Source: Patescibacteria group bacterium
Lineage (GTDB): Bacteria; Patescibacteriota; JACPGU01
NCBI GenBank assembly: GCA_022703645.1
Contig: JAKLDG010000001.1
Coordinates: 507,918-571,917 of the forward strand
DNA: 64,000 bases
Direction: 5' to 3'
The position numbers and the translations under genes were made by a program. The number at the start of each line of letters is the position of its first letter. Positions within the stretch are counted from its first letter, which is position 1. Below are positions 9,093 to 64,000 of the stretch, one piece after another. The notes beneath the pieces are model-generated. The model had not been told where the DNA came from and searched no databases. It worked only from the letters and a program-made list of their open reading frames with translations.

Positions 9093-9162
9093 AAAAGAAA
9101 AATATAGTCGCGGAGCAACACCGAATTTTTAATTTTTAATATTTAATTCTGGTTTTTTATAA

Positions 9163-9235: not shown

Positions 9236-9239
9236 GAAA

Positions 9240-9322: not shown

Positions 9323-9353
9323 ATAAAATTTTTAATTTTATAATTTTTAATTT

Positions 9354-9725: not shown

Positions 9726-9768
9726 TTGTGCGTTTATTTAAAAATTACAAAATTAAAAATTAAAAATT

Positions 9769-44935: not shown

Positions 44936-45603
44936 TTTAATTCCTCTAATAGTCTCTCAAATTCCTCTCCATATTTTATCTCAAATTTTTCTAAACGATT
45001 TGTGGTAGGATGGTGAAATTCTATCCGTTTTGCAATCAGCGCAAAGCCTTTTGTTTTCAATCCTTCAACGCGTCCGTAGTATAATTTATCACCAACAATC
45101 GGATGACCGATGTATTCCATGTGCACGCGAAGCTGATGTGTGCGACCGGTTACCGGTTCGAGTTTGATCAATGTGAACTCCCCGCCAATTCTTTTTAAAG
45201 TTTCATAATTTGTAATTGCCTTCTCCCCTCCTCGCATAACAGTCCGCTTTTGTTTTATCTTGCGATCAAGCCCGATCGATGCATCAACGACCCCATGTTT
45301 TTTATCAAATATTCCCAACACTATTGCATGATAAACTTTTTTCACCTTCCTTTCACGAAATTGCTGTTCAAGATTTTTCTGCGCTTTTTCGTTTTTGGCT
45401 AAAACAACTAATCCTGATGTAAATTTATCCAAGCGATGAACAAGAAATAGGTTTTTCTGATTAAAATACTTTCTCAAATAATTAACGATATTATTTTCGT
45501 TTTCTCCTCTCGGCTGATCCACTTCAATCCCCGCTTCTTTATTCACAACTATAATATCGGGGTCTTCATATATAATTTTAACTTTTTGTAAATGGTTATT
45601 CAT
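44932..45603 (-). CDS. RluA-family pseudouridine synthase
   Basis: Catalytic motif HRLDKFTSGLVVLAKN (HRLD..TSG). Its stop overlaps the murD start by 4 nt (ATGA), so it is translationally coupled inside the dcw operon. Confidence 0.8.
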   Translation of the reverse strand: MNNHLQKVKIIYEDPDIIVVNKEAGIEVDQPRGENENNIVNYLRKYFNQKNLFLVHRLDKFTSGLVVLAKNEKAQKNLEQQFRERKVKKVYHAIVLGIFDKKHGVVDASIGLDRKIKQKRTVMRGGEKAITNYETLKRIGGEFTLIKLEPVTGRTHQLRVHMEYIGHPIVGDKLYYGRVEGLKTKGFALIAKRIEFHHPTTNRLEKFEIKYGEEFERLLEELK

Positions 45604-46689: not shown

Positions 46690-47880
46690 TTATAACTTTA
46701 TACTTTCAACTATCCTTTCCATCTTCATTCCCCTTGAACCCTTTACCAATATTATATCATTTTTTTGTATAAAACTCCATATTTCTTGGCTTGCTATAAG
46801 CGAATTTTCAAACCAAGTTAATTTTGGCCCAAGGTCTTTTTTATATTTATCAAAAACTTTTTTCATTTTTTCACCAACTAAAATAACAAAATCCGCATTA
46901 CCTTTTAGCTGTCTGCCAATACTCAAATGTAGTTTATCGCTTTGATCCCCAAGTTCCAACATATCAGCAAGTATAAATACCCTTCTCCGTTTTATCGTAT
47001 CAGTATTTTTGATATCATTTACTATTTCAAAAGCTGCCAACATACTTTCAGGATTTGCATTATAAATATCACTGATTATGATTGAACCGTTTATTCCATT
47101 TATTATGTTTGTCCGGTCTTTGGGTAATCTATAATTTTCCAGATTCTTTTTTATTTCTTTTAAAGTCATTCCATAAATAATACCGCAGCAAACGGCAGAG
47201 AGAGCGCTATATACATTGTGTCTTCCAACTACTTTTAAATTTATTTTTTCTTTCTCTTTTTTGTAAATTAAATCAAAACTTAAACCGTCTTTCGTTGATT
47301 TAATTTTCTTTGCAACGACATCTGCGCCATCATCTGTCCCATAAAATAATATATTGCCAATAGTTCTTGTTTTCATTTCGCGGACTTTTTTGTCATCGAA
47401 GTTAAGAACCGCCCAACCATTTTTATCGAGAGATTCTACCAGCGTTCCTTTTTCTTTTGCCACTCCATCTAGATCACAAAAATATTCGAGATGAGAACAA
47501 GCAACTCTAGTGACAACTGCTATGTTTGGTTTTATAAAAGAAGTCAGATATTTCAAGTCCCCTACTCGATCGGCGCCCATTTCTAAAACCAATTTTTCCG
47601 GAAAATTTTTCGAGAAATAAGTTCTGCGAAAAATATCGAAGATATTTTTCGCGCTTTTCGATCCAATAATAGTTAATGGAACACCGATTTCATTATTGAA
47701 ATTCGCTTCATTTTTTCTTGTATTAAATACTGGGGCTAAAACTTCATAAATAGCATCCTTCGCTGAAGTTTTGCCAATGCTACCGGTAACAGCGATAACA
47801 TCCGGATGGAATTTGGTTAGCAGCCTGACGGCGCATTTTCTTAAAATGGATTGAGCTAATGTTTTGATTTGTGATTTCAT
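46690..47880 (-). CDS. murF: UDP-N-acetylmuramoyl-tripeptide--D-alanyl-D-alanine ligase (short form lacking the N-terminal domain)
   Basis: MurF-type motifs: TGSIGKTS P-loop, NFNNEIGVPLTI, YNANPESM and the C-terminal LVKGSRGMKME. It is only 396 aa, so the N-terminal domain 1 is missing. Confidence 0.7.
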   Translation of the reverse strand: MKSQIKTLAQSILRKCAVRLLTKFHPDVIAVTGSIGKTSAKDAIYEVLAPVFNTRKNEANFNNEIGVPLTIIGSKSAKNIFDIFRRTYFSKNFPEKLVLEMGADRVGDLKYLTSFIKPNIAVVTRVACSHLEYFCDLDGVAKEKGTLVESLDKNGWAVLNFDDKKVREMKTRTIGNILFYGTDDGADVVAKKIKSTKDGLSFDLIYKKEKEKINLKVVGRHNVYSALSAVCCGIIYGMTLKEIKKNLENYRLPKDRTNIINGINGSIIISDIYNANPESMLAAFEIVNDIKNTDTIKRRRVFILADMLELGDQSDKLHLSIGRQLKGNADFVILVGEKMKKVFDKYKKDLGPKLTWFENSLIASQEIWSFIQKNDIILVKGSRGMKMERIVESIKL

Positions 47881-51172: not shown

Positions 51173-51230
51173 TATGATTGGGTTTAAGCTTTCTAACTTT
51201 TACTTTTTATCTTCAAGTAAGTAATTAGCA

Positions 51231-51394
51231 GAAGCCTGAAGTCGGTAGGTTTGTTTTTGTTTTTGTTCAAAACATTTAGGATGGAGGTTCCCGCCCTTTC
51301 TTGAGAACAATATTTGTTCGCAAGAAAGGGCGGGATAAATTTTTTGTTTTTGTTTTATCCCGACTATTATGTCGAAATGTTGACTTCAGGCTTG
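51231..51394. repeat. Inverted-repeat / palindromic element (MITE- or REPIN-like) in the unusually long mraZ-rsmH spacer
   Basis: Outer inverted repeats GAAGCCTGAAGTC (51231-51243) and GACTTCAGGCTTG (51382-51394), 12/13 matched. Flanking T-rich direct repeats (TTTGTTTTTGTTTTTGTT at 51251 and TTTTTTGTTTTTGTTTTAT at 51341). A central 45-bp near-perfect GC-rich palindrome CCCGCCCTTTCTTG-agaacaatatttgttcg-CAAGAAAGGGCGGG (51290-51334) has a loop that is itself a hairpin. Confidence 0.6.
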
Positions 51395-51632
51395 TTATAA
51401 AAATCTTTTAAGAAGCCTCTGATAAGCAATATTTAGTTATAAAATTTAAGATTTTTTAGATAAAATTCATGAATAAAATTTTGAGTTTAGTTGATACTAA
51501 GCGAAAAATTTTTGAAAGAATTTTAGCAAAAAAGATAAATTTTTAACAAATACATTGTTTGTCTGAGGTTTCTTCTTCCTCCTAAAAGATCCTTAATCAG
51601 TTTTTAAATGCGGCTACGTATTTTGCGATTTT

Positions 51633-52154: not shown

Positions 52155-52192
52155 TATCCACTTTTCCCCACTCTTATCCACAATTTCCCACT
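52155..52192 (-). promoter_or_regulatory. MraZ operator: four direct GTGG(G/A) repeats at exact 10-bp spacing upstream of mraZ
   Basis: On the minus strand the sequence reads AGTGGGaaattGTGGATaagaGTGGGGaaaaGTGGA, with CCAC at + strand 52157-60, 52167-70, 52177-80 and 52187-90. MraZ is known to bind GTGGG-type direct repeats in its own promoter. Confidence 0.6.
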
Positions 52193-52243: not shown

Positions 52244-52277
52244 TAGAAAAAAATGACCTTGTTGGGTCATTTTTTTC
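52244..52277 (-). terminator. Rho-independent (bidirectional-type) terminator downstream of the giant surface-protein gene
   Basis: A-run, then AATGACC-ttgttg-GGTCATT, then TTTTTTT, located between the stop of 52349..56056 and the mraZ operator. Confidence 0.6.
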
Positions 52278-52348
52278 TAAATGGTATTGATTTGTGGATA
52301 ATTATTGAGAATAATTCTCAAAAATATCTATTTCCCACTTAGCTATCA

Positions 52349-55300
52349 TTATTTCAATCTTGTATTCTTTATTATCTTTTCAATCTTAGTAGTGTTGGTA
52401 CCATATTTACCTTCAAACGTGAATTTGGTATCAAAAGCTGAAGCAGTGGTTAACCCTTGAACATCAAAGGTTATCACAGTTGAACCATTATTAACAACTA
52501 GCCCAGTAACACAATTACTTTTTACTGTTAATGGATTACCGTCTGCGTCAGAAGCCCCAACTACCTTGTAGCCTGATGGCATAGATGCGCAGGCTTTGAC
52601 GGTCCAGTTGGTAGTAGATTCAAGAACAAATTCGTAAGAATGAGAGTTAACACCAGCGCCCCAGACCACAGATTCTGGGTAAGTCAGGTTAAGATTTGCT
52701 GGAGTAGTAATAAAGTCTTCATCACCTGGGTCTACTGCTACACAAATCTTGTTGGCATCTTTAGAGCTACATTTAACCTTCACACTCTTCATAACTTTGT
52801 TGTTCATCTTTGCTACCGGTCCTTTATTGAAGTTAAACTTATCAGAAGTTAATTTTCTACAAATGGTAGTAGTATGAGTTGAACTATCTACCGGATCGGA
52901 GATAACCACACGGGTAGCAGTGATATAGTTATCAATCTTAGGAAGAATGATATATTGAGAACTCTTTGTAATTGCAGCTTCTTTGGTGGTTGCTGTGTTA
53001 CCATCATATATAGAAGCACATTGAGCCTTAACCTTCTTGTCGAAGTCTTTAGATCCTAATGCAGTTATTAATGCTGCTTGGGTATAGACTTTGGTATTAA
53101 CTGAATCGATTACTTCTCCACGAGAGTCCCCTACTGGCCCAGGAATTAGAGAAGTTTTTGCTGATTTCTTTTCCTTACCATTTACTATGCCTGCAAAACC
53201 TACAACATCTTTACTATACACTACATGCAGATCACCTGTAGCTAATATAGCAGCTTTTACTGAAACGCCTAACGCAAATCTAGTAAAGTGAGTTGTAGTA
53301 AATGTTATATAGTAGTTAGAACCAGAGATACCAGTATCAGTAATGTTGTCATGATCAGCCCAGGTATTCCCTGCATCGGGAGAAAAGAATACATGGACAT
53401 CAGTAATAGCATAGCCAAGACTGTCCAAAAGAGCCTTATCAATCTTTAATGTTATTGTTACTGGAGAATTGAATGTCAGACCATCTGGTGAAAATTCATA
53501 TGAAGTTAATCCATCATATATACCGAATGGACCGGTGATCATGAAGTTAGATCCTGTTCCATCAATGCTGATTGTTGTGTCAGTGGAAAGCGCGCCAGCA
53601 GGAACAGTGATAGAAGCATTTGTGTCTGGAGTTGTAAGAGTAGCCCCCGCACTGGTAACCAATCCTGAAACATAAGCAGGGTTAGTTGGAGCAGCATTAG
53701 AGATGGAAATACTATTAATCTCAGGGGTAGAATTAGGATCGTTTGACATTAAGATTGTTTTATATTGAATGTACTGTCCTGTTGGAGAGCCAACTGGTTC
53801 TCCGGAATTACCATGATTTTGCCAATCAGACCACGCGCCTGAATATATTTCAAATTCATTAATGGCTACTGTATTAACTGCGCCTTCATCAACTTGTTTG
53901 GTGATATGTAACCTGAGTTTCCTTGTCTCAACTGTACTGAAGGATATTGAGAAATGATTATTAGAATTATTACCAATAACTTGTTGGACAGTATTCCAAT
54001 CAGAATCTACGGTTGGCTCACAATTATTATCATCTACACATACCTGAATATCAAAATCTACAGGATACATTTTTGTGCCGTACCATAGATCAACTTTAGA
54101 TACTTTGGTTGGAGATGCAAAATCAACCGCTACCCATTGAGGATTGGATGGCGATATTGATGATCCATTATCTTCGCTCTGCCAACCACTAAATTCCCTA
54201 TCACCATCAGCGATATTTGATACGTCACCAAATGGATAGTTTGGTTCTCCAGAACTAGATGAAAGATTTTTATTTAAAATAATATTTGTAATTGGATCAG
54301 CAGCAGCAGTTCGAGTCTGTAATGTTATTGATGTGCCAGCAGGAGTATTTGCAGTCCAGTCAATCGTACCCCAGTCTGTCTGGGCTCCAGTATTAATTAT
54401 GGAGGAAACCAAAGATGAAGAACCCGAATAACCTAACGGACCCAGCTTCTGCGCGTAAATTTGTGTGTTTAGCATACTATAGTCTTCCCATGCAGTGATT
54501 GCGCTTCCGGTTTCTGCTGTAGTTAAAACGGGAAAGCTTTGTCCGGCAGCTTTAGTGGCAATCGCCAAGCCATCTGCTCCCCACAAAGTGTTGCCGAAAG
54601 AATCTATATCTTGTCCATAAATATCAGAGTTCATACCGGAACGAAAATCGTTCCATACGATTATAGCACCTCCGTTGCCATCAGAAGCAATCTGATGGTC
54701 AAACTGAACTTGACCAAAATAATTCGAAACCGCTACTCCCGCAGGATTCCATATTAAAGAACCGGAAGAGTCAATTTTTTGAGCATAAATATTATATGTA
54801 GTTGGCGTATTGCGATCGTCAGCCCAGCTTATTATTGCGCCACCGTTGCCATCTGAAACAATTTTAGAATATACTTCCATACTTGTCGTAGTCGCGATTC
54901 CAACTCCATCTGCCTGCCATTTTATTGCCCCGGAGCTGTCAACTCTCTGGGCATAAACATTATTATCATTTGGGCTTACTCTATCATCCGACCAAGTTAC
55001 TATTACACCATTGCTACCATCCGATGTAATCTGCGGATCCTGACCACCATTTATCGTTACTTCAGCCCATTGCAATGAACCGGAACTACTAATTCTTTGC
55101 GCAAAAAGACCAGAACCATTTTGAGTGATATTAAGACCATCCCAAACCACTATCGCACCGCCTGAACCATCCGAAACCAATTTCGAATTTGAGTCCCTAT
55201 AAGTATTATTAGTAGAAATCTTGACGCCGTCCGTTGCCCATTGGAAAGAACCTGACGAATCTAATTTTTGCGCATAAACATGATATTGCCAATTTCTGCT

Positions 55301-56056
55301 GTCAAACCATGATACAATAAACCCACCGTTTCCATCCTGAATAATCATAGGTTTGCCCTGACCGCGTTGCGCCGCGCAAACAACAACTCCAGAGCCCCAT
55401 ATTAAATTACCTGAAGAATCAATCCTTTGAGCATAGATATCATCACCGTTATAATTACGATAGTCACCCCATACCACAACTACTCCTCCAAAACCGTCTG
55501 GGGTGATATGGTAATCTCTTTCTGAACCTATATCTTCATACAGACTTAGCTGTTTTACTTCCCACATAACTCCACCTGACGGATTAACCTTCTTGATTAC
55601 TAAATCAGCATTGGTATTATCAAACATCGCCATTATAGTGTTGCCATTGCCATCCGGAATAATATTTGTAAACATATATTGTAGCGCATCTGAAGATATA
55701 TTTAAACCGCCATTCTGCCATTTTGATATTGACAGATCCATAGCCAATCTTCCGGCGCTTGAGGTATTGACAGATCCTTCGGTTGAGTAGTATTTATTCC
55801 AACCAGCCGCATCTCCTGGGAGAACCGCCATAGACGCCTGATCCGCGCCTCCAGTCCAGTCGTTTTGGGTGAAGATCACGGTGCCTGAAGCTTTGGTATT
55901 AAACATCATAAGCTTTTTCAAACTTAGTCCGTCTAGACTTACCACTACAGCAAAAGATGCAATTAGAGCCAAAGCAGAAATTCCAATAAAAAGTTTATAG
56001 TTCTTTTTTGGAGTACATTTCTTTGGTTTGCATTTTTTACAAAACATTTTTTTCAT
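52349..56056 (-). CDS. Giant secreted/surface protein: beta-propeller repeats + discoidin (F5/8 type C) domain + C-terminal Ig-like domains
   Basis: 1235 aa. The N-terminus is basic and Cys-rich (CKKCKPKKC) followed by a TM/signal anchor. It has about eight ~50-aa repeats (YAQ(K/R)(I/L)DSSG...W...GV......sDG.GG.I..W.D.R). The discoidin-like segment reads VAVDFASPTKVSKVDLWYG...FDIQVCVDDNN...LRLHITKQ. Confidence 0.6.
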   Translation of the reverse strand: MKKMFCKKCKPKKCTPKKNYKLFIGISALALIASFAVVVSLDGLSLKKLMMFNTKASGTVIFTQNDWTGGADQASMAVLPGDAAGWNKYYSTEGSVNTSSAGRLAMDLSISKWQNGGLNISSDALQYMFTNIIPDGNGNTIMAMFDNTNADLVIKKVNPSGGVMWEVKQLSLYEDIGSERDYHITPDGFGGVVVVWGDYRNYNGDDIYAQRIDSSGNLIWGSGVVVCAAQRGQGKPMIIQDGNGGFIVSWFDSRNWQYHVYAQKLDSSGSFQWATDGVKISTNNTYRDSNSKLVSDGSGGAIVVWDGLNITQNGSGLFAQRISSSGSLQWAEVTINGGQDPQITSDGSNGVIVTWSDDRVSPNDNNVYAQRVDSSGAIKWQADGVGIATTTSMEVYSKIVSDGNGGAIISWADDRNTPTTYNIYAQKIDSSGSLIWNPAGVAVSNYFGQVQFDHQIASDGNGGAIIVWNDFRSGMNSDIYGQDIDSFGNTLWGADGLAIATKAAGQSFPVLTTAETGSAITAWEDYSMLNTQIYAQKLGPLGYSGSSSLVSSIINTGAQTDWGTIDWTANTPAGTSITLQTRTAAADPITNIILNKNLSSSSGEPNYPFGDVSNIADGDREFSGWQSEDNGSSISPSNPQWVAVDFASPTKVSKVDLWYGTKMYPVDFDIQVCVDDNNCEPTVDSDWNTVQQVIGNNSNNHFSISFSTVETRKLRLHITKQVDEGAVNTVAINEFEIYSGAWSDWQNHGNSGEPVGSPTGQYIQYKTILMSNDPNSTPEINSISISNAAPTNPAYVSGLVTSAGATLTTPDTNASITVPAGALSTDTTISIDGTGSNFMITGPFGIYDGLTSYEFSPDGLTFNSPVTITLKIDKALLDSLGYAITDVHVFFSPDAGNTWADHDNITDTGISGSNYYITFTTTHFTRFALGVSVKAAILATGDLHVVYSKDVVGFAGIVNGKEKKSAKTSLIPGPVGDSRGEVIDSVNTKVYTQAALITALGSKDFDKKVKAQCASIYDGNTATTKEAAITKSSQYIILPKIDNYITATRVVISDPVDSSTHTTTICRKLTSDKFNFNKGPVAKMNNKVMKSVKVKCSSKDANKICVAVDPGDEDFITTPANLNLTYPESVVWGAGVNSHSYEFVLESTTNWTVKACASMPSGYKVVGASDADGNPLTVKSNCVTGLVVNNGSTVITFDVQGLTTASAFDTKFTFEGKYGTNTTKIEKIIKNTRLK

Positions 56057-56119
56057 TTTTTATTTTTCCTTTTTTTACTTTTTATATTAATATGACTTAA
56101 GTTTGATGATTTTTAAATT

Positions 56120-57163
56120 TTATTTTATCTCTTGATTCAATTTACGATTTTTTTCCTCCTGCTTCTGTAACTCTTCAAGTAACTTTTTTGCTTCCTTTAC
56201 TGCTGCTTTATTGGGATTCTTTTTTGGACCGATGGTAACTTTTATGCTTTTTATACCTTCTATATTTCCTGCCTTATCGACCGAATAATAATAAACCGTA
56301 TATTCGCCTGCTCCACTTAATTTGATTGGCGAAGAATAAACATTAAAATTTCCAGATTCTCCGGTTCTATAATAAGTTTTTTCTACCCCAGATTTTACTG
56401 TTGAACTTGGCGGAAGAGCAGATAATAAATCTGGCTGACCAGAAATACTGTCAAAAACAATTCTACCTTCACTTGGTACCGGCAATAAAGCGGGGTGATA
56501 AAAACTGTTTCCACTATAACTAAACGCTTTTGCAAAAGCATCAACATTTATTCCGTATTGAGAAAATTGTTGTGGATCTTTTGTATCATATAGAGTCATA
56601 TGAACCGTATCAGAACCAATGTTTGTTGTAACTAGATATACATAAATGTCCTGCGGTTCTGAAAAAGGTTGTCCGCCGGAATAATTTGCTTCTAATTCAT
56701 TTAATGATAAAGTTGCAGGAAGCAAGCCACTGCCACTTTGGCTGCTGGAGAATAAAACTGCAGGAGAATACGTACCGCCGGTTGAAAATTCATCCATATA
56801 GCTCACCCCGTTAAAAGACATTCCAGTTCGCGCTAGTTCATAACCACCGTTGATATTCTCGACAATTGATAAATCAGGCTCGCCATCTATCTTATTGATT
56901 TCAGCAGCTGCGCTTCCTCTTCCAACTTTTTTAATCTCATCAGTTGCATTTAATACCACCTCTGCTTTGTCTTTGAAATACCAGCTTCCATCAGATGTTT
57001 TTGTTTTAGCACCTGTAACTTTTGCGGAAGTTAATGGTGCGATAGTATCACCAGCTAAAAAAGCAGAAGTCTTAATAACACCCACCCCTACAACAGCTAA
57101 CACCAATAATGTTAATAATGGTAATTTATATCTTGAATTGTTTTTCATATTTTTTCCTGTCAT
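56120..57163 (-). CDS. Secreted Ig-like-domain hypothetical protein with a Lys/Glu-rich coiled-coil tail
   Basis: 347 aa. Signal peptide (LLTLLVLAVVGVGVIKTSA), a Big-like strand (EYTVYYYSVDKAGNIEGIKSIKVTI) and a C-terminal KEAKKLLEELQKQEEKNRKLNQEIK. Confidence 0.45.
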   Translation of the reverse strand: MTGKNMKNNSRYKLPLLTLLVLAVVGVGVIKTSAFLAGDTIAPLTSAKVTGAKTKTSDGSWYFKDKAEVVLNATDEIKKVGRGSAAAEINKIDGEPDLSIVENINGGYELARTGMSFNGVSYMDEFSTGGTYSPAVLFSSSQSGSGLLPATLSLNELEANYSGGQPFSEPQDIYVYLVTTNIGSDTVHMTLYDTKDPQQFSQYGINVDAFAKAFSYSGNSFYHPALLPVPSEGRIVFDSISGQPDLLSALPPSSTVKSGVEKTYYRTGESGNFNVYSSPIKLSGAGEYTVYYYSVDKAGNIEGIKSIKVTIGPKKNPNKAAVKEAKKLLEELQKQEEKNRKLNQEIK

Positions 57164-57186
57164 GTTTGTAAAATTGCTGATATTAA

Positions 57187-60126
57187 CTAATATTTTAACT
57201 GCCAGCCGGCAATAATTATATCCGGATTGATCTGAAGTGAAGGATAGTTATATTTGTTTAATTCAACTAAATCAACCCACATATTTTCTACTCCATATAA
57301 CACGAAAGCGATGCTTGAAAGCGAATCACCGCCTTTTACTATATAAATATTTTCACCAGCACCTTGTGTTGACAGCTGATATTTGAATACCCATCCACTA
57401 TAAATTATATTTGGTATCGTGACAAGTGTGGAAAACTGTTCGCTATTCAACGCAACTAATATTTCTCTCGTAGTACCTAATTGCGCCGCAATACTATAAA
57501 GGGAATCCCCTGGTTGAACTACATAAAATCCATAAACGATTTCTTGGATTGGGTTTACGATCGATTCGGGGGTAGGTTCTGGGATCGGCGTTGGAGTTGG
57601 TTCAGGTATAGGAGTTGGAGTGGATTCTTCTGGAGTTGGTATGGCCTCAGAGATAGGTTCAGGAATAGGTTCGGAAGTTGGTGGAATAAAAGTATATACA
57701 GATGGCGGTTGTGGAGCTGTTTCGATAGTCCAGGAATAATTAGCAGGAGTTAAATCAACATTCCCTACTAGATCTGTAGCCTTAACTTCAAATGAATGAA
57801 CTCCTAAAGATAACCCGCTATAATTAACCGGGCTGGTACATACTGCAAATAAAGCTCCGTCAACCCGACATTCGAAAGTTGAGGCTTCACTGGAGCTGAA
57901 AGTGAAGGTTGCATCGGTTGAATAAGTTACCAAAGCTGGGTTGGAATCTATGATAGTATTTGGGCTAGTTGAATCAATATTTATCGGATTAGCTGAAGAT
58001 AGAACAGATTTATTAGCAAGCGCATCTTCTGAATAAATACAGATGTAAAAACCATTATTGGTTTCGTCTGATTGGTTCATAGAATCAGTATCCAGTTTTG
58101 TAAAGGTATCGGTAATAGAACAAGTGTTGGTAGCGAAATAATCCCATTTTTTCACCACAGCTGCGTCCCAGTCACCGGTAATAGTATCACTTGCGACTGG
58201 ACCTATTTCCACATCGTTTGCAAAGGAAAGAGCCGGAGCGGTAGCATCTATATTGATTTTATTGGCAGAAGCCAAAACAGATTTATTCCCAAGGGAGTCT
58301 TCACCATAAAGGCATATATAGAAACCATTATTGGTTTCGTCTGATTGGTTCATAGAATCAGTATCCAGTTTTGTAAAGGTATCGGTAATAGAACAAGTGT
58401 TGGTAGCGAAATAATCCCATTTTTTCACCACAGCTGCGTCCCAGTCACCGGTAATAGTATCAGAAGACACTGGACCAGCAGCTATATCATTGGTAAAAGA
58501 AAGTGCTGGTGGAGTTGCATCTATACTAATACTATTAGTAGAAACTAAGATAGATTTATTACCAAAACCGTCCTCCCCATAAAGACAAATATACCTGCCG
58601 TTATTGGTTTCATCTGATTGGTTCATAGAATCAGTATCCAGTTTTGTAAAGGTATCGGTAATAGAACAAGTGTTGGTAGCGAAATAATCCCATTTTTTAG
58701 TAGTTGAATCTCCCCAAGAGCCTATAATAGTATCACTCTGAATTGGACCGGCTGCCACATCATCCACAAAGGAAAGAACCGGACTTAAATTATCTACTCG
58801 GAAGCTTGCCGAAGTCTGAACAGATCCATCTACCAGACTATCACTTGGAGTTACTCTAATCTGGTAATTGCTTTGATCTAAGCCATCCAAAGATCCCCCA
58901 CCATTCGAAGCATTTTTGGTATCCCAAACTATATTTAATGTTACCGCGCCACCGGAGGTATCAATCGGATTGCTAGTTCCTATCTGATAAGCATTACTAT
59001 TATTCAGATCAATAGCCCCAGACGAGGGTGTTGCAAAAGCAAGATAAGGAGCATACCAATTCATTCCCCCATCCGGTGAATATTCTACTTTTAGTTTAGT
59101 ATTTTGTAAGTTTGCATCAGAAATATTAGTCTGAATATTTACATAACCAGTACCATCAGTCGGCTGAGAAATAAATGAAGGAATGGTCGCCACGGGCGCA
59201 ATGTTTGCCGAAACAACAACCTCATTACTTAATGCGGATACAAGGGTACCCGATGTTGCGCATATTTTTATACTTTCTGCTGCAGAATATCTCATCATTG
59301 TATAACTTTTTACCCCTGAAGTTACTGCTGTGCCTGATGCCGGGTTAGAGAATAAAACACCCGAACCTAGTGTCCCCCCGCAATTCTGATCTGAAAGCAC
59401 CGGGGTAAGCGTAATTGTAGAAGTATTATCAGTCGTTACTGTATGACCAAATTGATCTTGTACTGCAATCACTGGTTTAACTGCAAAACCAATATTAATA
59501 ATAGCAGTAGCCGAAGGTTGATTTGTAAAAATAAGTTTATTTTTGGCTCCTATAGCTTGGGATAGAGCACCAAAACTAGTTGAATCGTTCACTATCCCCA
59601 CGATTGCTCCCGTTCCAGGGTTTGCTGATGTTCGATAAATATTTCCTGAAGAAGGAATAACGGATCCGTCAATAGCGCGTACTTGCAGCCCGCTAATAGT
59701 CATTACATCCGATTTATTTGCTGTACCATCTGTAGAAAAAGTAATTGTTATTGTTGTGGCCGTAACTGCTATAGAACTAGATGTTATATCTCTAGCTGCC
59801 GTATAAGTAACTGTCCCAACACCAGGATTAAATGACCAGTTATTTGGTGCTGTTAAAATTAAAGTGGTATTTGTTTGACTCGCTGCAAAGTCACCATTTG
59901 CTCCCTCGGTAATGACAATATTGCCAAGCGTCGTCCATGCTGGAGTTGTGGCATTTGCCGCTTTGTCTGCAGAAATATTTGTGCCTCCAGAAGATGGGGT
60001 TACATTTGCTGCTGCTTCAGTTTTCAGACTCATATAAACTCCGACGGACAGCAAAAAAATAATCACTCCGATTAAAAAGAATCGTAGATATTTATTTTTT
60101 ATGGTTTTTAGAAAAAGATTTTCCAT
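57187..60126 (-). CDS. Large secreted surface protein with three near-identical 91-aa tandem repeats, a Cys-containing Ig-like domain, a Pro/Thr/Glu linker and two C-terminal LysM-like repeats
   Basis: 979 aa. Signal anchor (FLIGVIIFLLSVGVYMSL). The triplicated unit reads ...KKWDYFATNTCSITDTFTKLDTDSMNQSDETNNG(F/R)YIC(L/I)Y.ED.... The Ig-like domain reads TFTFSSSEASTFECRVDGALFAVCTSPVNYSGLSLGVHSFEVKATDLVGNVD. The linker is PEPISEAIPTPEESTPTPIPEPTPTPIPEPTPE. The C-terminus has YVVQPGDSLYSIAAQLGTTREILVALNS.. and YIVKGGDSLSSIAFVLYGVENMWVDLVELNK...AGWQLKY. Confidence 0.6.
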   Translation of the reverse strand: MENLFLKTIKNKYLRFFLIGVIIFLLSVGVYMSLKTEAAANVTPSSGGTNISADKAANATTPAWTTLGNIVITEGANGDFAASQTNTTLILTAPNNWSFNPGVGTVTYTAARDITSSSIAVTATTITITFSTDGTANKSDVMTISGLQVRAIDGSVIPSSGNIYRTSANPGTGAIVGIVNDSTSFGALSQAIGAKNKLIFTNQPSATAIINIGFAVKPVIAVQDQFGHTVTTDNTSTITLTPVLSDQNCGGTLGSGVLFSNPASGTAVTSGVKSYTMMRYSAAESIKICATSGTLVSALSNEVVVSANIAPVATIPSFISQPTDGTGYVNIQTNISDANLQNTKLKVEYSPDGGMNWYAPYLAFATPSSGAIDLNNSNAYQIGTSNPIDTSGGAVTLNIVWDTKNASNGGGSLDGLDQSNYQIRVTPSDSLVDGSVQTSASFRVDNLSPVLSFVDDVAAGPIQSDTIIGSWGDSTTKKWDYFATNTCSITDTFTKLDTDSMNQSDETNNGRYICLYGEDGFGNKSILVSTNSISIDATPPALSFTNDIAAGPVSSDTITGDWDAAVVKKWDYFATNTCSITDTFTKLDTDSMNQSDETNNGFYICLYGEDSLGNKSVLASANKINIDATAPALSFANDVEIGPVASDTITGDWDAAVVKKWDYFATNTCSITDTFTKLDTDSMNQSDETNNGFYICIYSEDALANKSVLSSANPINIDSTSPNTIIDSNPALVTYSTDATFTFSSSEASTFECRVDGALFAVCTSPVNYSGLSLGVHSFEVKATDLVGNVDLTPANYSWTIETAPQPPSVYTFIPPTSEPIPEPISEAIPTPEESTPTPIPEPTPTPIPEPTPESIVNPIQEIVYGFYVVQPGDSLYSIAAQLGTTREILVALNSEQFSTLVTIPNIIYSGWVFKYQLSTQGAGENIYIVKGGDSLSSIAFVLYGVENMWVDLVELNKYNYPSLQINPDIIIAGWQLKY
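57971..58790. repeat. Intragenic tandem repeat, 3 copies x 273 bp (approximate bounds)
   Basis: The string gtttcgtctgattggttcatagaatca recurs at 58061, 58334 and 58607, i.e. at exact 273-bp spacing. Long stretches are identical between copies, and the + strand track ORFs 58072..58344 and 58345..58548 have identical N-termini for this reason. The repeats lie in frame within 57187..60126. Confidence 0.85.
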
Positions 60127-60145
60127 TTTTTATTTCTTTAAAAGT

Positions 60146-63100
60146 TTATTCAACGGTTAACTGCCAATAAATTCCTTTATCTTCCATCCAAACCAATCCT
60201 TCAACTACTGGCGTAAAATATGACTTATAAGTCCCGGCGTCCGCCGGAGCTTTAATTTTAAATGTAAATCTTCCTACTTCTCCTGGTTTTACTTCTGCTG
60301 TATCAAAAGAAGTACAGCGGTTTGGAGCTATCCAGTCGCTATTCGCAAATTCCGAAGTATAATCTTTTTGCTGAGTTGGACTTCCATAAATAGAGCCTGT
60401 ACCGAACCTAACTGGATTTGCACCGTCTTTGAACCAGCTAACCGTACCCGTGTTTTTCAGTTCAATCCAAACTTCAATCTCCTCCCCCGCTGAAATCTGG
60501 GTAGGATAGCCAGACTGACCGACTACCTCATAACCGTAAGTTGAAGTTGAACCTAAAATATCATATTTCAATAACCAGTCAGAATAAATAACATTTGCAC
60601 CACCGTCTAAACTGAGATTAGTATACTGATCTTGATTTAGTTCAACCAATCTTCTCCATTTCTCCTGATCGCCATAGAGTTTCAGCGCTATCCATTGCAG
60701 ATCTTCACCAGGTTCAACCTTATAGTAGCCGAATTCACCTGTTGGAGCTACCGTAGGTAATTCTTTAAATCTTAGTTTCCATCCTGCAACTATTATACTT
60801 GGATCACTTTCCAATGAAGGGAATATATCTTTATTTAATTCGACTAATCGCGTCCATTGTTCTTCATCCTGAAATAATTCGCGGGCAATTGATTTCAGCG
60901 AATCGCCATCTTGAACTATATAATAATCCCCTATTATTTTTTGCACTTCTGGCTGAGCTTGAGGAACTGGTTGAGAAACCGGCTGTGATTGATTTTCTGC
61001 TATTGGTTCTGATGTTTGTTGAATGTTGCCAAATCTCAATTGCCACTCACTATATATAATGTCAGGTCGGCTAACCAGACTTGGGAATGTATCTTTATTT
61101 AATTCTACGAGATCTCTCCACCTTTCACTATCGCCATAAACTTTTTCTGCAACTGTCTTAAGGTTTTCTCCTGGTTGAACAGTATAAATCCCTGAATCAC
61201 TTCTGACTGAAATTTCCCAGAATAAACCAATATCATTCATCCATCCTGTTCCATCAGCAACTGGAGTAAAATATGCTTTGTAATTTCCAATTTGCGTTGG
61301 AGCTTTAATTGTAAATTCGAACCTTGCCGTATCTCCCGATTCAATAAGAAAGTCTGGGATACTGGATGCTCTGTTTGGTGATAACCAATTTTCAGCGGCA
61401 AACTCAGAAATATAATCTCTTTTTTGGGCAGAGCTTCCAAACGATGACCCTGTTCCGAGACGGACATTACTGTCCCAAGCAACAGAACCGGTATTTTTTA
61501 CTTCAACCCAAACATCGGTAGTCTCGCCAGGTTTTAAAGTGCTTGGGTATGGTGATTGAGATACCAGTTCATAAGAATATATTAGTTGTGGTTCCGGTTG
61601 GATTTCAACTATTGGTTCAGGCTGTACCTCAGGTTGAGGTTGGACTTCGGGCTGTTCTTGACCATCTCCTACAACCGTAACTTCCCAATACAAACCAATA
61701 TCAGTCATCCAAGTTACTCCGTCTGCTACCGGTGTGAAATAAGCTCGATAAGTACCAGGCGTCGTTGGAGCTTTGATTGTAAATTGAGCCTTGGCATCGT
61801 TGCCTGGTTCAACATAGCTGCTGATTGCAGTAGAGTTTGGATTAATTATCGAAGTAGGTCTGTTTACAGATAGCCAATTGATATTTGCAAATTCTGATGG
61901 ATAATCTCTCTGTTGACTTGGACTACCATACATAGAACCGGTTCCGAGACGAACTTTGCTATCCCAAACAGCTGTACCGGTATTTTTTACTTCTATCCAG
62001 ACATCGGTTGTCTCACCCGGTTTTAGTGTACTTGGATATGGAGACTGAGAAACCAATTGATAATTATAACCTTCAACTGGAATGGTTTGCTCAATCTGCT
62101 GTTCTGGTTGTACTATTTCTTGCGGCTGCTCAGGTATTTCAGGTATTACCTCTGGCTGTAATATCTCTTCTGGTTGTTCTAACTCCGGCTCTTCGATAAT
62201 AGGTTCCGGTTCGGTTACCTCTACATTTTCACTAAATATTATTGAATCTGATACAGAACCTGAAACATTTCCTGCCGCGTCTTTATATTTTGCATAAACT
62301 GTTTTTGTACCATATCCAGTTGCCAAAGCCCAAGCCTTCGAATTAACAAACGTCTCCCAGCTGCTGCCGATAAAGTAAGCGTTGTTAGAAATCATCATTG
62401 ATATGGCATCAGTAGCGCCCAACGTCAGGGTAACGCTTGCCGATGCAGTTGAGCTTGCTCCGCTATTAATTGAGATAGAAGTGTTGGTCGGAGGTGTTGT
62501 ATCTTGAATTAGATTATTTCCTCCACCACTATTGTTTTGCTGGCTAACACTAATACTCCAAGTATAGCTTTCTGGCGTTGCATCGCTATTTCCTGCCAGG
62601 TCAACCGCGTAAACATAAAATGTGTGACTGCCATTTGCCAAACCTGAATAATTCTTTGGGCTGGAACAAGTAGTATAATAGCTACCGTCTATTTTGCATT
62701 TAAAAGTTGAAGACTCATCCGCGCTAAATACGAAAGTAGCGGATGAAGAAGTTGCGTTTAACGCCGGTGTAGAAGATAGAGTAGTTTCTGGAGGGATACT
62801 TTCAATTATATAACCATTTTCTATCCCAAAACCTGCGCCACTAATAGAATCCAGGGCTTTGATTTTTAGATCACCACTGCTTGTAATTGAAATCGAACAG
62901 TTCACTGTATAGCTATCAACCTGCGTACAAGCAAAATCAGTGAAACCAGCGGTAGTAGCTCCATCTACTGAAACACCGGCGCTATCAACTCCCCCGCTAT
63001 CGGTAATATGAATTGTCGTATTTGTAATATTTGCCGAAGAAGCTTTCGTTGGAGCAGAAATCGAAATAACTGGAACCGTAATAGTCACCGCGTAACCATT

Positions 63101-64000
63101 CTCGCTCTGTTCAGAGGTATTGGAAACCAGATCAAAGGCTTGGATTTTCAGATTACCGGAACTTAATAAACGGATTGTGCAATCTACGGTTTTGATATCC
63201 GTTTGTGTACAGTTTAAATTATCGTAATCATCTATTGTATTTTCATCATCTATAGAAACATTGACCGCTAATATTTCATTATCATCAGTGACATGAATTG
63301 CAGTATCAGTAATGGCACTATTAGAAGTTTTCGTTGGTGCAGTAATTATAATTACCGGACCAGTATTATCGATTACATAGTTATTTTCTGTCTGTGTCCC
63401 TTGATTATTAAATGAATCGAGAGCTTTGATTACTAAATTACCTGAAGAAGAAATATTTATGGAACAATCTACCGTTTTCGCATTAGTTTGAATACAAGAA
63501 AATCCGCTAGTTCCGGCAGTAGTTGAAGTATCTATTTCAACACTATTAGCCAAGACCCCAATATTGTCAGTAATATGAATCTCGGTCGTGGTAATTGCAG
63601 CATTTGAAAGTTTATCCGGAGCGCTGATGATTATAACTGGAGCTGAAGAATCAATGACATAACCATCTTCTTCCCCAGATATTTGATTTGATGCGCCGTC
63701 TTCAGCGCGAATTACCAATTTGCCTGAACCGGAAATTTCGATTGCGCAATCTACTGTACTACTATTGGTTTGAGTACAGCTGAAATTGCTATAAGCAACT
63801 GTGGTTGATGGATCGACTAAAACACCACCGGTAAAAATAGCGCCATTATCTGTAATATGAATAGTAGTATCAGTAACCAAACTGCCAGCAGTCTTGGTTG
63901 GAGCCGTGATAGAAACTACTGGGTTAACCATATCAATGATAAATCCATTTTCAGTTGCTACTGAATTATTAGCTACTACATCAGAAGCGCTAATTGCCAA
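60146..64000 (-). CDS. Giant surface protein, partial (N-terminus beyond window end): five Ig-like ~90-aa repeats, a Cys Ig-like domain, three NBR1-like domains shared with the L,D-transpeptidase, Glu/Pro-rich linkers and four LysM-like repeats
   Basis: >=1284 aa. Repeated units IISAPDKLSNAAITTTEIHITDN...NGYVID. A domain TFVFSADESSTFKCKIDGSYYTTCSSPKNYSGLANGSHTFYVYAVDLAGNSD. Three copies of (Y.Y.LVSQSPYPSTLKPGETTDVW.EVKNTG...W...RLGTGS...F.IKAPT..G.Y.AYFTPVADG..WM.DIGL.WE..V). Four copies of Y.V.PGE.L..(I/V)A.K.YGD.E.W..LVELN.D..PSL...P.II...W.L.F. The ORF is open to the window edge. Confidence 0.6.
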   Translation of the reverse strand: MAISASDVVANNSVATENGFIIDMVNPVVSITAPTKTAGSLVTDTTIHITDNGAIFTGGVLVDPSTTVAYSNFSCTQTNSSTVDCAIEISGSGKLVIRAEDGASNQISGEEDGYVIDSSAPVIIISAPDKLSNAAITTTEIHITDNIGVLANSVEIDTSTTAGTSGFSCIQTNAKTVDCSINISSSGNLVIKALDSFNNQGTQTENNYVIDNTGPVIIITAPTKTSNSAITDTAIHVTDDNEILAVNVSIDDENTIDDYDNLNCTQTDIKTVDCTIRLLSSGNLKIQAFDLVSNTSEQSENGYAVTITVPVISISAPTKASSANITNTTIHITDSGGVDSAGVSVDGATTAGFTDFACTQVDSYTVNCSISITSSGDLKIKALDSISGAGFGIENGYIIESIPPETTLSSTPALNATSSSATFVFSADESSTFKCKIDGSYYTTCSSPKNYSGLANGSHTFYVYAVDLAGNSDATPESYTWSISVSQQNNSGGGNNLIQDTTPPTNTSISINSGASSTASASVTLTLGATDAISMMISNNAYFIGSSWETFVNSKAWALATGYGTKTVYAKYKDAAGNVSGSVSDSIIFSENVEVTEPEPIIEEPELEQPEEILQPEVIPEIPEQPQEIVQPEQQIEQTIPVEGYNYQLVSQSPYPSTLKPGETTDVWIEVKNTGTAVWDSKVRLGTGSMYGSPSQQRDYPSEFANINWLSVNRPTSIINPNSTAISSYVEPGNDAKAQFTIKAPTTPGTYRAYFTPVADGVTWMTDIGLYWEVTVVGDGQEQPEVQPQPEVQPEPIVEIQPEPQLIYSYELVSQSPYPSTLKPGETTDVWVEVKNTGSVAWDSNVRLGTGSSFGSSAQKRDYISEFAAENWLSPNRASSIPDFLIESGDTARFEFTIKAPTQIGNYKAYFTPVADGTGWMNDIGLFWEISVRSDSGIYTVQPGENLKTVAEKVYGDSERWRDLVELNKDTFPSLVSRPDIIYSEWQLRFGNIQQTSEPIAENQSQPVSQPVPQAQPEVQKIIGDYYIVQDGDSLKSIARELFQDEEQWTRLVELNKDIFPSLESDPSIIVAGWKLRFKELPTVAPTGEFGYYKVEPGEDLQWIALKLYGDQEKWRRLVELNQDQYTNLSLDGGANVIYSDWLLKYDILGSTSTYGYEVVGQSGYPTQISAGEEIEVWIELKNTGTVSWFKDGANPVRFGTGSIYGSPTQQKDYTSEFANSDWIAPNRCTSFDTAEVKPGEVGRFTFKIKAPADAGTYKSYFTPVVEGLVWMEDKGIYWQLTVE

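Follow-up and report, generated by a model that had tools for sequence, protein, structure and literature searches.

The four minus-strand genes immediately upstream of mraZ in this Patescibacteria genome are best read, with a probability of roughly 55%, as a lineage-specific, operon-like set encoding four Sec-exported envelope proteins that build surface fibres and lectin-like receptors. The surface-fibre or adhesin reading is based on LysM modules in two of the proteins, one of which also carries three FW (Pfam N_BRCA1_IG) domains. The window, a stretch of 64,000 nucleotides analysed as a whole, contains the 3' part of gene 1 and all of genes 2 to 4 (Table 1).

Organization of the gene cluster

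The open reading frames called in the window are co-directional, separated by gaps of 19, 23 and 63 nucleotides, and of the lengths given in the initial annotation (at least 1,284, 979, 347 and 1,235 aa). The sum of ~3,800 aa that it gave is too low, because gene 1 runs off the window edge: in a public contig that matches 14 kb of the window at 100% identity the gene is complete and encodes 3,288 aa, so that the four predicted exported envelope proteins together amount to 5,849 aa (~17.6 kb). Full-length gene 1 was read from contigs L003 (positions 115-9981) and L004, the tails of which are identical to the window. The cluster genes are also identical in one NCBI assembly and one JGI contig, proteins identical to that of gene 2 (P0121 and P0122) are present in public assemblies, and a Logan contig keeps the order of genes 2 to 4 and the dcw genes.

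Downstream of the cluster are mraZ, rsmH, a PBP gene and mur genes. A common terminator had been placed at 52244-52277, and a hairpin with a T-rich tail was found there, followed by an MraZ operator-like site that marks the start of a separate dcw unit outside the cluster; this fourfold GTGGnnAAnn array occurs once in the window versus 0.00 expected matches (100 shuffles). Because these two elements lie between gene 4 and mraZ, the cluster is considered a unit separate from dcw, and the short gaps together with the terminator make the four genes operon-like by sequence. The reported position directly upstream of mraZ is thus correct, but it does not demonstrate a functional link. The wall genes of the window encode a class A PBP, an FtsI-type PBP, Mur ligases, MraY, MurG, FtsW and an L,D-transpeptidase; the organism, earlier described as CPR-like, belongs to the Patescibacteria (CPR) and has genes for peptidoglycan synthesis.

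Table 1. Positions in the window of the cluster genes, their modules and neighbouring elements
Feature	Position	Strand	Remarks
Gene 1	60146-64000	-	C-terminal 1,284 aa of 3,288-aa protein; N-terminal 2,004 aa past window end
Cys-pair Ig-like stalk repeats, gene 1	62762-64000	-	last 4.4 of ten tandem 94-aa copies
Cys-containing Ig-like module, gene 1	62510-62806	-	51% identity to gene-2 residues 719-798
Pro/Glu/Gln-rich linker, gene 1	62069-62215	-	precedes putative wall-binding block; read from translation
FW copy 1	61664-62068	-	Pfam, alignment, local HMM
FW copy 2	61196-61579	-	Pfam, alignment, local HMM
LysM repeat 1, gene 1	61028-61195	-	Pfam, local HMM
LysM repeat 2, gene 1	60764-60931	-	best Pfam LysM stretch (residues 1027-1077); local HMM
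LysM repeat 3, gene 1	60560-60733	-	local HMM
FW copy 3	60149-60538	-	gene-1 C-terminus; best Pfam N_BRCA1_IG stretch (residues 1167-1263)
Gene 2	57187-60126	-	979 aa; mosaic with putative LysM anchor
Signal peptide or anchor, gene 2	60013-60126	-	sole hydrophobic segment, residues 11-36
N-terminal head, gene 2	59182-60009	-	two beta-sandwich domains; conserved
Three tandem 91-aa repeats, gene 2	57988-58806	-	72-90% identical at protein level
Cys-containing Ig-like module, gene 2	57664-57978	-	OmpL47-type 17.7 bits, sub-threshold
Pro/Thr/Glu-rich linker, gene 2	57532-57663	-	read from translation
Two C-terminal LysM repeats, gene 2	57373-57531 + 57190-57351	-	Pfam 39.2 bits (gathering threshold 20.9)
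Gene 3	56120-57163	-	347 aa
OmpL47-type domain, gene 3	56936-57052 + 56231-56398	-	insertion 56399-56935
Gene 4	52349-56056	-	1,235 aa
Eight-bladed beta-propeller, gene 4	~54443-55705	-	AlphaFold2, Foldseek
Discoidin domain, gene 4	53879-54259	-	Pfam F5_F8_type_C 41.9 bits, above gathering threshold
ZU5-like segment, gene 4	53447-53671	-	Pfam
Intrinsic-terminator-like hairpin	52244-52279	-	15-bp stem, then T-rich tail; ends four-gene unit
MraZ operator-like site	52158-52191	-	10-nt direct repeat GTGGnnAAnn in four copies ahead of mraZ
L,D-transpeptidase	7511-8497	+	N-terminal helix, FW (7712-8098), YkuD catalytic domain

Module composition of the four proteins

Hydropathy analysis gave each protein exactly one hydrophobic segment, N-terminal and behind a basic stretch, with no further membrane segment in any of the four. 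These segments are candidate signal peptides or anchors; with cores of 17-21 hydrophobic aa, which is long, they may be uncleaved anchors, which would alter topology. Past the core of gene 1 is a small-residue Val-Glu-Ala/Ala motif, read by eye, which would fit a signal-peptidase site. These features support the prediction that all four are exported, multi-module envelope proteins.

The N-terminal segment of gene 1 is followed by an unassigned head of ~500 aa, ~21 Ig-like stalk modules and a C-terminal block of 640 aa in the order FW-FW-LysM-LysM-LysM-FW, with Pro/Glu-rich linkers between modules. Ten tandem modules of 94 aa, three of ~118 aa and three of 93 aa were distinguished in a jackhmmer repeat map; the ten 94-aa copies (residues 1476-2417 of the full-length protein) are 44-58% identical to each other by self-BLAST and match no Pfam or NCBIfam family. 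Three N_BRCA1_IG domains (71.9 bits) and LysM (25.8 bits) exceed their Pfam gathering thresholds. The three FW copies had been assigned to the last gene; the copies are there, but this gene is the first in transcription order.

Gene 2 has three module types in common with gene 1. Its head, with 29 relatives of 23-51% identity that mostly carry it directly behind their own signal peptide, was modelled by AlphaFold2 at pLDDT >90 as two beta-sandwiches that resemble domains of intimin, invasin, pilin, MSCRAMM and S-layer proteins, and all matches in fold searches were generic (Ig-like, adhesin, S-layer and cohesin). Neither gene 1 nor gene 2 was found to have a recognised adhesive domain, and searches of Pfam, NCBIfam and PDB assigned their heads to no family or to generic folds only. 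The 91-aa repeats, of which gene 1 has one more copy past the window end, have a period of 273 at the DNA level with 85% matches (Tandem Repeats Finder). Contig L003 is otherwise identical and contains exactly one copy fewer, a situation like that of periscope proteins, surface proteins in which the number of near-identical repeats varies (PMC9704523); gene 2 differs from these in having only 2-3 copies, and the difference could be a collapse in short-read assembly.

The Cys-containing Ig-like module was correctly attributed to two genes, its copies in genes 1 and 2 being 51% identical over 80 aa; that of gene 1 is a weak OmpL47-type match (21.3 bits, cut-off 40). Most of the other modules described as Ig-like hit nothing in Pfam, even with the limit relaxed to E <= 1. 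The Pro/Thr/Glu linkers of the initial annotation are legible in the translations as Pro/Glu/Thr-rich stretches.

Gene 3 looks like a small secreted protein. Its sequence starts with a signal or anchor segment, continues with an OmpL47-type domain into which ~180 aa are inserted, and has a Lys/Glu-rich tail. The intact protein matches the OmpL47-type profile at positions 15-68 (56.7 bits), and removal of the insertion extends the match to positions 2-68 of 68 (78 bits). Gene 4 begins with a basic, Cys-rich tail and a single hydrophobic helix (55916-56002), through which it probably stays membrane-bound. Both the beta-propeller and the discoidin domain that had been proposed were found in gene 4 and form a lectin-like combination: residues ~118-540 were modelled with eight blades (pLDDT 81-97; internal repeats of ~54 aa, 2,730 relatives), which Foldseek matched best to the lectins CV39L and PLL2 and to sialidases. 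Its C-terminal 310 aa are Cys-rich and have no domain assignment.

Putative wall-binding modules and conservation

The C-terminal repeats had been called LysM-like, and the Pfam scores identify them as genuine LysM in genes 1 and 2; in the cluster genes LysM, N_BRCA1_IG and F5_F8_type_C all scored above their gathering thresholds. In a six-frame scan of the window, this type of LysM was found only in genes 1 (three copies) and 2 (two copies), and genes 3 and 4 contain no wall-binding module. The proposal that the four proteins are wall-tethered is thus supported for genes 1 and 2 and is not shown for all four. The LysM variant is longer than usual and ends in G-W-x-L-x-F/Y rather than G-Q-x-L-x-I-P; its nearest counterpart is the LysM domain in PRK11198, the NCBIfam model "peptidoglycan-binding protein LysM", and the variant of gene 2 matches PDB 4uz2, the LysM of a cell-wall-binding endopeptidase (E 2.3e-6). 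Tandem LysM with flexible linkers as a non-covalent anchor is likewise present in AtlA of Enterococcus faecalis (PMC10113225) and in Thermus NlpC/P60 (PDB 4uz2), whereas the LysM proteins of the cluster have no catalytic domain.

The FW domain is restricted in the same six-frame scan to gene 1 and the L,D-transpeptidase, as had been noted; the copy in the enzyme scores 22.9 bits in Pfam, below the threshold of 28, but matches the gene-1 copies by BLAST with E values of 1e-20 to 8e-26. Four Trp are invariant in the alignment of the copies. A profile built on them found 4,401 representative proteins. When the 150 best-scoring of these were clustered on their sequence outside FW, 41 had peptidoglycan-acting enzyme domains (20 Amidase_2, 17 SpoIID, 3 Peptidase_M23 and 1 YkuD), and 55 of the 150, scanned independently with Pfam, gave 11 Amidase_2, 9 SpoIID and 2 M23. 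This frequent domain association suggests a cell-wall-targeting role for FW, which would form a composite anchor with LysM. Eukaryotic NBR1/ILRUN and bacterial XRE-FW proteins (PMC3357945, PMC9582228) belong to the same Pfam family, with four conserved Trp and an Ig-like fold, and the FW proteins of bacteria are a diverse group (PMC3357945, PMC9582228). In eukaryotes the FW domain is cytosolic and has protein ligands (PMC9233695, PMC9582228), namely MAP1B, TAX1BP1 and Ams1; the copies of the cluster are predicted to be extracellular and stand in tandem arrays, and among their closest relatives are fusions to peptidoglycan amidases, SpoIID, M23 and YkuD.

Conservation of the cluster extends to one species and one close relative, which limits comparative support. 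The gene-1 orthologue of the relative (contig L005) is 65-78% identical, with pN 0.21 and pS 0.71, and at the sequence level gene 1 is shown to be under purifying selection; a gene with a gene-3-like N-terminus comes after this orthologue. Beyond its own species gene 2 has no match that covers more than 33% of it, and for gene 3 a search of 5.8 billion proteins found no homologue other than itself. Synteny next to mraZ was absent from a distant relative, the only one in which the locus could be read: unrelated genes lie upstream of mraZ there.

Proposed function and comparison with known systems

Genes 1 and 2 would have the same plan, with an N-terminal head on an Ig-like stalk and, at the C-terminus, an anchor that holds non-covalently to the wall. 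After export, the LysM repeats would bind the cell's own peptidoglycan non-covalently, as the FW domains very likely would too, and the Pro-rich linkers would cross the wall. The gene-1 stalk would push its head outward, by ~80 nm if extended and if each Ig-like module is taken as ~4 nm, and the heads and the propeller/discoidin modules would bind a partner cell or a surface glycan. We infer this anchoring, topology and adhesive function. Of the earlier description, export and a multi-module envelope architecture are supported, and host attachment by fibrillar-adhesin-like proteins is a proposal.

It is doubtful that gene 2, and perhaps genes 1 and 3, would instead form an S-layer or envelope lattice held to peptidoglycan by LysM. 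S-layers, the proteins of which are not known to have been identified, have been seen on CPR cells by cryo-EM, and acidity, a non-covalent wall anchor and fast divergence are typical of S-layer proteins; gene 2 is acidic (94 Asp+Glu versus 42 Lys+Arg), such an anchor is present, and divergence between lineages is very fast. S-layer proteins are, however, usually Cys-poor, whereas gene 2 has 10 Cys and full-length gene 1 has 35, no SLH or other S-layer anchor family was found with Pfam, and a tandem-repeat array of 3,288 aa suits a rod better than a lattice. Membership in the adjacent dcw cluster, as division or wall-remodelling accessories, is very improbable: in all assemblies of the species mraZ comes next after the cluster, and LysM and FW are found in wall enzymes also, but the terminator and operator-like array separate the units, profile searches found no catalytic domain, the distant relative has other genes at this locus and, unlike division genes, these are not conserved.

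A reversed topology, with the N-terminal helices as uncleaved anchors and distal LysM/FW modules gripping the peptidoglycan or chitin of a host or prey wall, so that genes 1 and 2 act as grapples, is unlikely. The long hydrophobic cores are in keeping with it, LysM binds GlcNAc polymers generally, and the wall-cleaving enzymes to which FW is fused could, in an epibiont, attack host walls. The CPR bacteria in cultivation live as epibionts and depend on adhesins (PMC10633639). The possible signal-peptidase motif of gene 1 argues against it, as do the Pro-rich linkers adjoining LysM/FW, which resemble wall-spanning regions of Gram-positive surface proteins, the N-terminal position of the gene-2 head in most of its 29 relatives, the usual site of a distal functional domain (PMC8286594), and the FW of the L,D-transpeptidase, an enzyme that must act on the wall of its own cell.

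The fibre-and-receptor reading places the cluster close to fibrillar adhesin-like proteins, including the giant adhesins of Gram-positive bacteria (Monzon et al. 2021, PMC8286594), which are also long, single-chain, multi-domain proteins with tandem Ig-like stalks, a presumed N-terminal head, a C-terminal surface anchor and fast evolution by module shuffling. LysM is one of the anchor types listed for that class, although rare (four proteins in that survey), and adhesive domains tend to be N-terminal (PMC8286594). The cluster differs in having no module of the Pfam stalk and adhesive families that define the class, in the interleaving of LysM with FW, and in belonging to a CPR bacterium; adhesion here is predicted. 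Vampirococcus lugosii is likewise a CPR bacterium with a tiny genome and giant proteins (1,392-4,163 aa) that are predicted at the envelope and have interaction domains; they were proposed to give the cell a fibrous surface for host attachment (PMC8080830). The two domain repertoires differ: WD40, PKD, DUF11, integrin and fibronectin in V. lugosii; FW, LysM, discoidin, a propeller and Ig modules, these last two unnamed, in the cluster.

No full-length characterised homologue was found for the cluster proteins, in agreement with the initial annotation, but systems of this kind have precedents, giant CPR surface proteins (PMC8080830) and LysM-anchored fibrillar adhesins (PMC8286594) both having been described. 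A literature search found no paper on FW joined to peptidoglycan enzymes, and this association is the freshest result of the analysis. The cluster looks like another fast-evolving bacterial set of surface fibres or adhesins, notable mainly for the pairing of LysM with the bacterial NBR1-type FW domain.

Organization of the cluster and its boundary with the dcw genes

The region 52349-64000 is filled by four minus-strand ORFs, transcribed in the order gene 1 to gene 4 and separated by gaps of 19, 23 and 63 nt. The window is 100% identical over the compared 14 kb to NCBI contig DAOTEO010000002.1 (GCA_035454225.1, 'Patescibacteria group bacterium'); in both this contig and an 866-kb JGI metagenome contig (L003), gene 1 encodes 3,288 aa with a tail equal to the window ORF. 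Thus, the cluster codes for 5,849 aa in approximately 17.6 kb, replacing the first-gene size and the total of about 3,800 aa in the initial annotation, for which gene 1 had been cut by the window edge. The cluster occupies about 2% of the 866-kb contig, possibly the greater part of the genome. A 40-nt exact pattern from L003, sought in the JGI metagenome collection to extend past gene 1, had no match, nor did an exact look-up of gene 2 with an ATG start at 60126. The G+C content of the window at 54001-64000, where most of the cluster lies, is 0.36-0.42 (mostly about 0.40), compared to 0.33-0.37 for most of the window, which could be due to the Thr/Ser/Gly/Ala-rich composition of the proteins or to a foreign origin of some modules.

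Features of the cluster and of other parts of the window
Feature	Position	Strand	Description
Gene 1 (window part)	60146-64000	-	ORF
Gene 2	57187-60126	-	ORF
91-aa repeats of gene 2	57988-58806		three copies
Gene 3	56120-57163	-	ORF
Gene 4	52349-56056	-	ORF
Gene 4, residues 1-22	55990-56056	-	very basic stub before membrane helix
Hairpin terminator	52244-52279	-	15-bp stem and T-rich tail, downstream of gene 4
Four direct 10-nt GTGGnnAAnn repeats	52158-52191	-	pattern occurs once in the window, versus 0.00 expected by chance
mraZ-rsmH gap	51173-51632		460 nt, non-coding
Hairpin inside mraZ-rsmH gap	~51290-51334	-	perfect 14-bp GC-rich stem, CCCGCCCTTTCTTG ... CAAGAAAGGGCGGG
734-aa ORF	1531-3735	-	PKD and InlB B-repeat domains; far from the cluster

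The array of direct repeats, which reads GTGGGAAATT GTGGATAAGA GTGGGGAAAA GTGG and precedes the mraZ start by about 95 nt, resembles an MraZ operator and is a candidate for one on the basis of its sequence. Beyond it are mraZ, rsmH, a small FtsL-like ORF, and genes for an FtsI-type penicillin-binding protein (PBP), Mur ligases, MraY, FtsW, MurG and FtsQ. With a terminator and operator-like repeats between gene 4 and mraZ, the cluster forms a compact unit separate from the dcw genes, ending ahead of their promoter and operator region. Among 185,579 species representatives, the most similar RsmH has 41% identity and also belongs to a Patescibacteria genome (the next has 38%); upstream of mraZ, this nearest GTDB relative carries an NDP kinase and unrelated genes, so that the comparison of synteny beside mraZ suggested in the initial annotation showed none in this relative. 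Membership in the dcw operon was rejected on account of the intervening hairpin and array and of the lack of such adjacency in this relative. Within the dcw region itself, the mraZ-rsmH gap is unusually long and contains a hairpin, with no Rfam family at gathering score; an RNA pseudouridine synthase gene is found between mraY and murD, and the interval from the PBP gene to mraY, which usually holds both murE and murF, has a single Mur ligase gene (44932-45603 (-) and 46690-47880 (-) for the two observations).

Domain architecture and relatives of the four proteins

Each protein has one hydrophobic segment, N-terminal and preceded by a Lys-rich stretch, with a core of 17-21 residues that would permit either a cleaved signal peptide or an uncleaved anchor. 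A second hydrophobic segment usable as a C-terminal sorting signal is absent from all four, and sortase anchoring was rejected for this reason. The C-terminal LysM-like repeats of the initial annotation were confirmed by Pfam above the gathering score (PF01476, 20.9) in genes 1 and 2, with 39.2 bits for gene 2, 25.8 for the window part of gene 1 and 21.7 for full-length gene 1, and a PDB sequence search with all four proteins matched LysM only (4uz2, E 2.3e-6). The LysM domains of genes 1 and 2 are a predicted cell-surface anchor. As they were found in these two genes only, the earlier proposal that all four proteins are tethered to the wall did not stand; this and the truncated first gene apart, the earlier observations were in general borne out.

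In gene 1, the hydrophobic segment is followed by about 500 aa matching no family and then by a stalk consisting of an Ig/fn3-like module, one 91-aa repeat of the gene-2 type, three 93-aa modules, three of about 118 aa and ten 94-aa modules with a Cys pair. After these come a Cys-containing Ig-like module, one more Ig-like module, a Pro/Glu linker, and a C-terminal block in the order FW-FW-LysM-LysM-LysM-FW, where FW is the NBR1-like Ig-fold domain N_BRCA1_IG. A gene-1 orthologue on a 5.3-kb Logan contig (L005) has 65-78% identity and the same module order, with three LysM domains and two FW domains versus three in gene 1. Across all modules of the orthologue, pN is 0.21 and pS is 0.71, indicating purifying selection on gene 1; given this selection and the intactness of the genes in three assemblies, artefact ORFs were rejected. 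The orthologue (L005:2-4732) is broken in two by an in-frame stop that separates one 94-aa repeat from the next, which could be a sequencing or assembly error or the mark of a pseudogene.

Gene 2 consists of a signal/anchor segment, a conserved double beta-sandwich head (residues ~40-315), a region without family, three 91-aa repeats (72-90% mutual identity), a Cys module with 51% identity to that of gene 1, a Pro/Thr linker and two LysM domains. The head was modelled with pLDDT above 90, but its fold matches are generic Ig-like only, and its resemblance to domains of the S-layer proteins SbsC and Sap is likewise generic. It recurs N-terminally in proteins of 700-1,670 aa in unrelated contexts; one relative (P0126) has a PAS/GAF sensor and a response regulator as its neighbours, and gene order around the head is accordingly not conserved. 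Over 22 kb, the sole difference between the window and the JGI contig is one 91-aa (273-nt) repeat fewer in the latter, gene 2 having 979 aa in the window and 888 aa, with two repeats, in L003:10001-12667. Periscope proteins vary in the number of highly identical DNA repeats between closely related strains (PMC9704523). The difference of three versus two copies seen here between two assemblies, in repeats that match at 85% in DNA, is either real copy-number variation of a surface-protein repeat or short-read assembly collapse. In L005, the gene after the gene-1 orthologue has a gene-3-like N-terminus (36% identity, E 9e-11), with no gene 2 between them, which fits a sequence-based view of gene 2 as a recent mosaic of gene-1 parts and a mobile head.

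Gene 3 has an OmpL47-type beta-barrel domain (NCBIfam NF047446, cut-off 40) that scores 56.7 bits over profile positions 15-68 when intact and 78 bits over positions 2-68 of 68 when residues 77-255 are removed. Thus, the domain is broken by an insertion of about 180 aa; the tail beyond it is Lys/Glu-rich. Against the same profile, the Cys modules of gene 1 (21.3 bits) and gene 2 (17.7 bits) stay below the cut-off and are not members of the family.

The product of gene 4 begins with a basic, Cys-containing cytoplasmic stub (three cysteines, MKKMFCKKCKPKKCTPKK) and one hydrophobic helix, followed by eight repeats of about 54 aa, a discoidin domain, a ZU5-like segment and 310 residues without assignment. 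In an AlphaFold2 model built with 60 aligned homologues, the repeats form an eight-bladed beta-propeller (pLDDT 81-97), in agreement with the initial annotation, as is the F5/8 type C (discoidin) assignment at residues 600-726 (Pfam 41.9 bits versus 28.2), a part modelled with pLDDT below 50. The homologues are confined to residues 160-540, which leaves the model unusable elsewhere. Foldseek matched the propeller with probability 1.0 to propeller lectins, sialidases and DPP-IV (target-normalised TM up to 0.64), the best matches being the propeller lectins CV39L and PLL2, sialidases and other propellers; these model-based matches confirm the fold but give no family name, and no named propeller repeat family was matched. 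The 2,730 scored relatives of the propeller, from many phyla including archaea, have only the propeller in common with gene 4.

Nine isolated modules searched against Pfam (E <= 1) and NCBIfam gave only ZU5 (26.3 bits), a weak Big_5 and the sub-threshold OmpL47-type matches. Outside its own species, gene 2 has no match covering more than 33% of its length; gene 3 has no homologue among 5.8 billion proteins; and no relative of the cluster emerged when metagenome contigs were scanned with a profile of the FW/LysM block. As genes 2 and 3 have no full relatives while the propeller and head are widely shared, the genes are lineage-specific assemblies of widely circulating extracellular modules, as is usual for adhesins and S-layer proteins.

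The FW domain and its partners

The NBR1-like Ig domain of the initial annotation was recognized by Pfam (PF16158) in three stretches of gene 1, with 71.9 bits versus a gathering score of 28. The copy in the L,D-transpeptidase (YkuD) at 7511-8497 scores 22.9 bits alone, below 28, but its alignments with the copies of gene 1 have E 1e-20 to 8e-26; W35, W65, W120 and W128 are invariant in all four (alignment A1). A profile of these copies found 4,401 representative proteins at E <= 0.001 among 1.84 billion. The best 150 have 2-9 FW copies each, and a hydrophobic segment is present at the N-terminus of 112 of the 136 whose sequence begins with Met.

Domains outside FW in the best 150 of 4,401 FW proteins
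Partner	Proteins	Remark
Unassigned N-terminal domain, ~250 aa	43/150	
Amidase_2	20/150	
SpoIID	17/150	
Subtilase-like	11/150	read from sequence; Pfam Peptidase_S8 in 5/55 scanned
fn3 array	7/150	
Glucose/sorbosone dehydrogenase-like	5/150	assigned from 55-protein Pfam scan, not cluster representative
GH39-like glycosidase	4/150	
Peptidase_M23	3/150	
YkuD	1/150	

Fusions to wall-acting enzymes number 41 among the best 150, and an independent Pfam scan of 55 of these proteins found 11 with Amidase_2, 9 with SpoIID and 2 with M23. In the window L,D-transpeptidase, FW follows the N-terminal hydrophobic segment and precedes the YkuD catalytic domain; in the founding YkuD of Bacillus, a LysM comes before the catalytic domain. 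A module that occurs in tandem arrays fused to wall hydrolases bears the classic mark of wall binding. The recurrent fusion of FW to amidases, SpoIID, M23 and YkuD, and its interleaving with LysM in gene 1, predict wall binding, and bacterial FW may accordingly target the cell wall, by guilt by association rather than demonstration. In the literature searched, bacterial FW domains were noted with no function assigned (PMC3357945, PMC9582228), and no paper was found that names both the Pfam family and peptidoglycan; in eukaryotes, FW domains bind proteins (PMC9233695). On the wall-targeting reading, to which we give somewhat less than an even chance, FW would bind peptidoglycan or a polymer associated with the wall, and CPR and other bacteria would retain secreted enzymes and giant fibres through tandem FW copies, with a composite FW/LysM anchor in this case; by extension, the cargo-recognition domain of NBR1, a eukaryotic autophagy receptor, would have descended from a bacterial wall-binding domain.

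The ~250-aa N-terminal domain shared by 43 of the 150 proteins (P0177-P0326, alignment A6) has a conserved INPQVIL-TLQKEQSL motif and an invariant Lys-Glu pair, and had no match among Pfam, NCBIfam or PDB entries, also when searched as a profile of 14 sequences. It may be a wall hydrolase family that has gone unrecognised. To our eye, the Lys-Glu motif is reminiscent of lysozyme-like active sites.

Possible function at the cell surface

The overall reading that we favour, with a probability of roughly 55%, is that the cluster encodes a fibre- or adhesin-like surface. The proteins would be exported via Sec; the C-terminal LysM domains, probably with FW, would tie the products of genes 1 and 2, by non-covalent binding, to the peptidoglycan of the cell itself, the Pro-rich linkers would thread the wall, and the Ig-like stalks would keep the N-terminal heads off the cell. 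For gene 1, about 21 modules of ~4 nm would give a stalk of the order of 80 nm, judging from typical Ig-domain dimensions. Gene 4 would stay membrane-anchored, displaying its propeller and discoidin domains (a lectin-like combination), and gene 3 would be a small secreted partner. LysM is among the anchors listed for fibrillar adhesin-like proteins, although a rare one, and the adhesive domains of these proteins tend to lie at the N-terminus (PMC8286594). Genes 1 and 2 resemble these proteins in having a surface anchor and the tandem-repeat stalk that characterizes them, but none of the Pfam stalk families of the published definition is among their repeats, and no known adhesive domain was found in either by Pfam (discoidin is present in gene 4 only). 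A fibrous coat of giant surface proteins was proposed for the CPR bacterium Vampirococcus (PMC8080830), with which the fibre reading agrees.

An S-layer-type lattice is rather unlikely: the proteins are acidic and hypervariable, and the gene-2 head is as similar to S-layer domains as to adhesin domains, but the proteins are Cys-rich and S-layer anchors are lacking, with no SLH domain detected by Pfam in the cluster. Slightly less probable still is a reversed topology in which the LysM/FW end binds the wall of a host; the conserved head is N-terminal, and FW is also present in the cell's own transpeptidase, both of which argue against it. That the cluster, as part of the dcw genes, has a role in cell division is highly improbable, considering the terminator and operator-like site that intervene, the lack of catalytic domains among those found, and the lack of conservation of the genes.

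The surface-fibre interpretation was thus reasonable when first suggested, although this kind of system is already known. What is new is the particular architecture, in which a predicted composite FW/LysM anchor belongs to a fibre of 3,288 aa encoded by a CPR bacterium, together with the proposal that bacterial FW targets the cell wall. Because the genes are species-specific mosaics of widely shared extracellular modules, they contribute one more instance and a hypothesis on the function of a domain rather than a system of a new kind. Attachment to other cells is the presumed way of life of CPR bacteria, and to our knowledge few attachment structures are known outside the Saccharibacteria, apart from type IV pili; we are likewise aware of no function for bacterial FW since the domain was first noted in bacteria. 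The partners of FW, wall enzymes and LysM, thus provide a handle on its function in bacteria, and the cluster is a concrete, testable candidate for a CPR contact surface.
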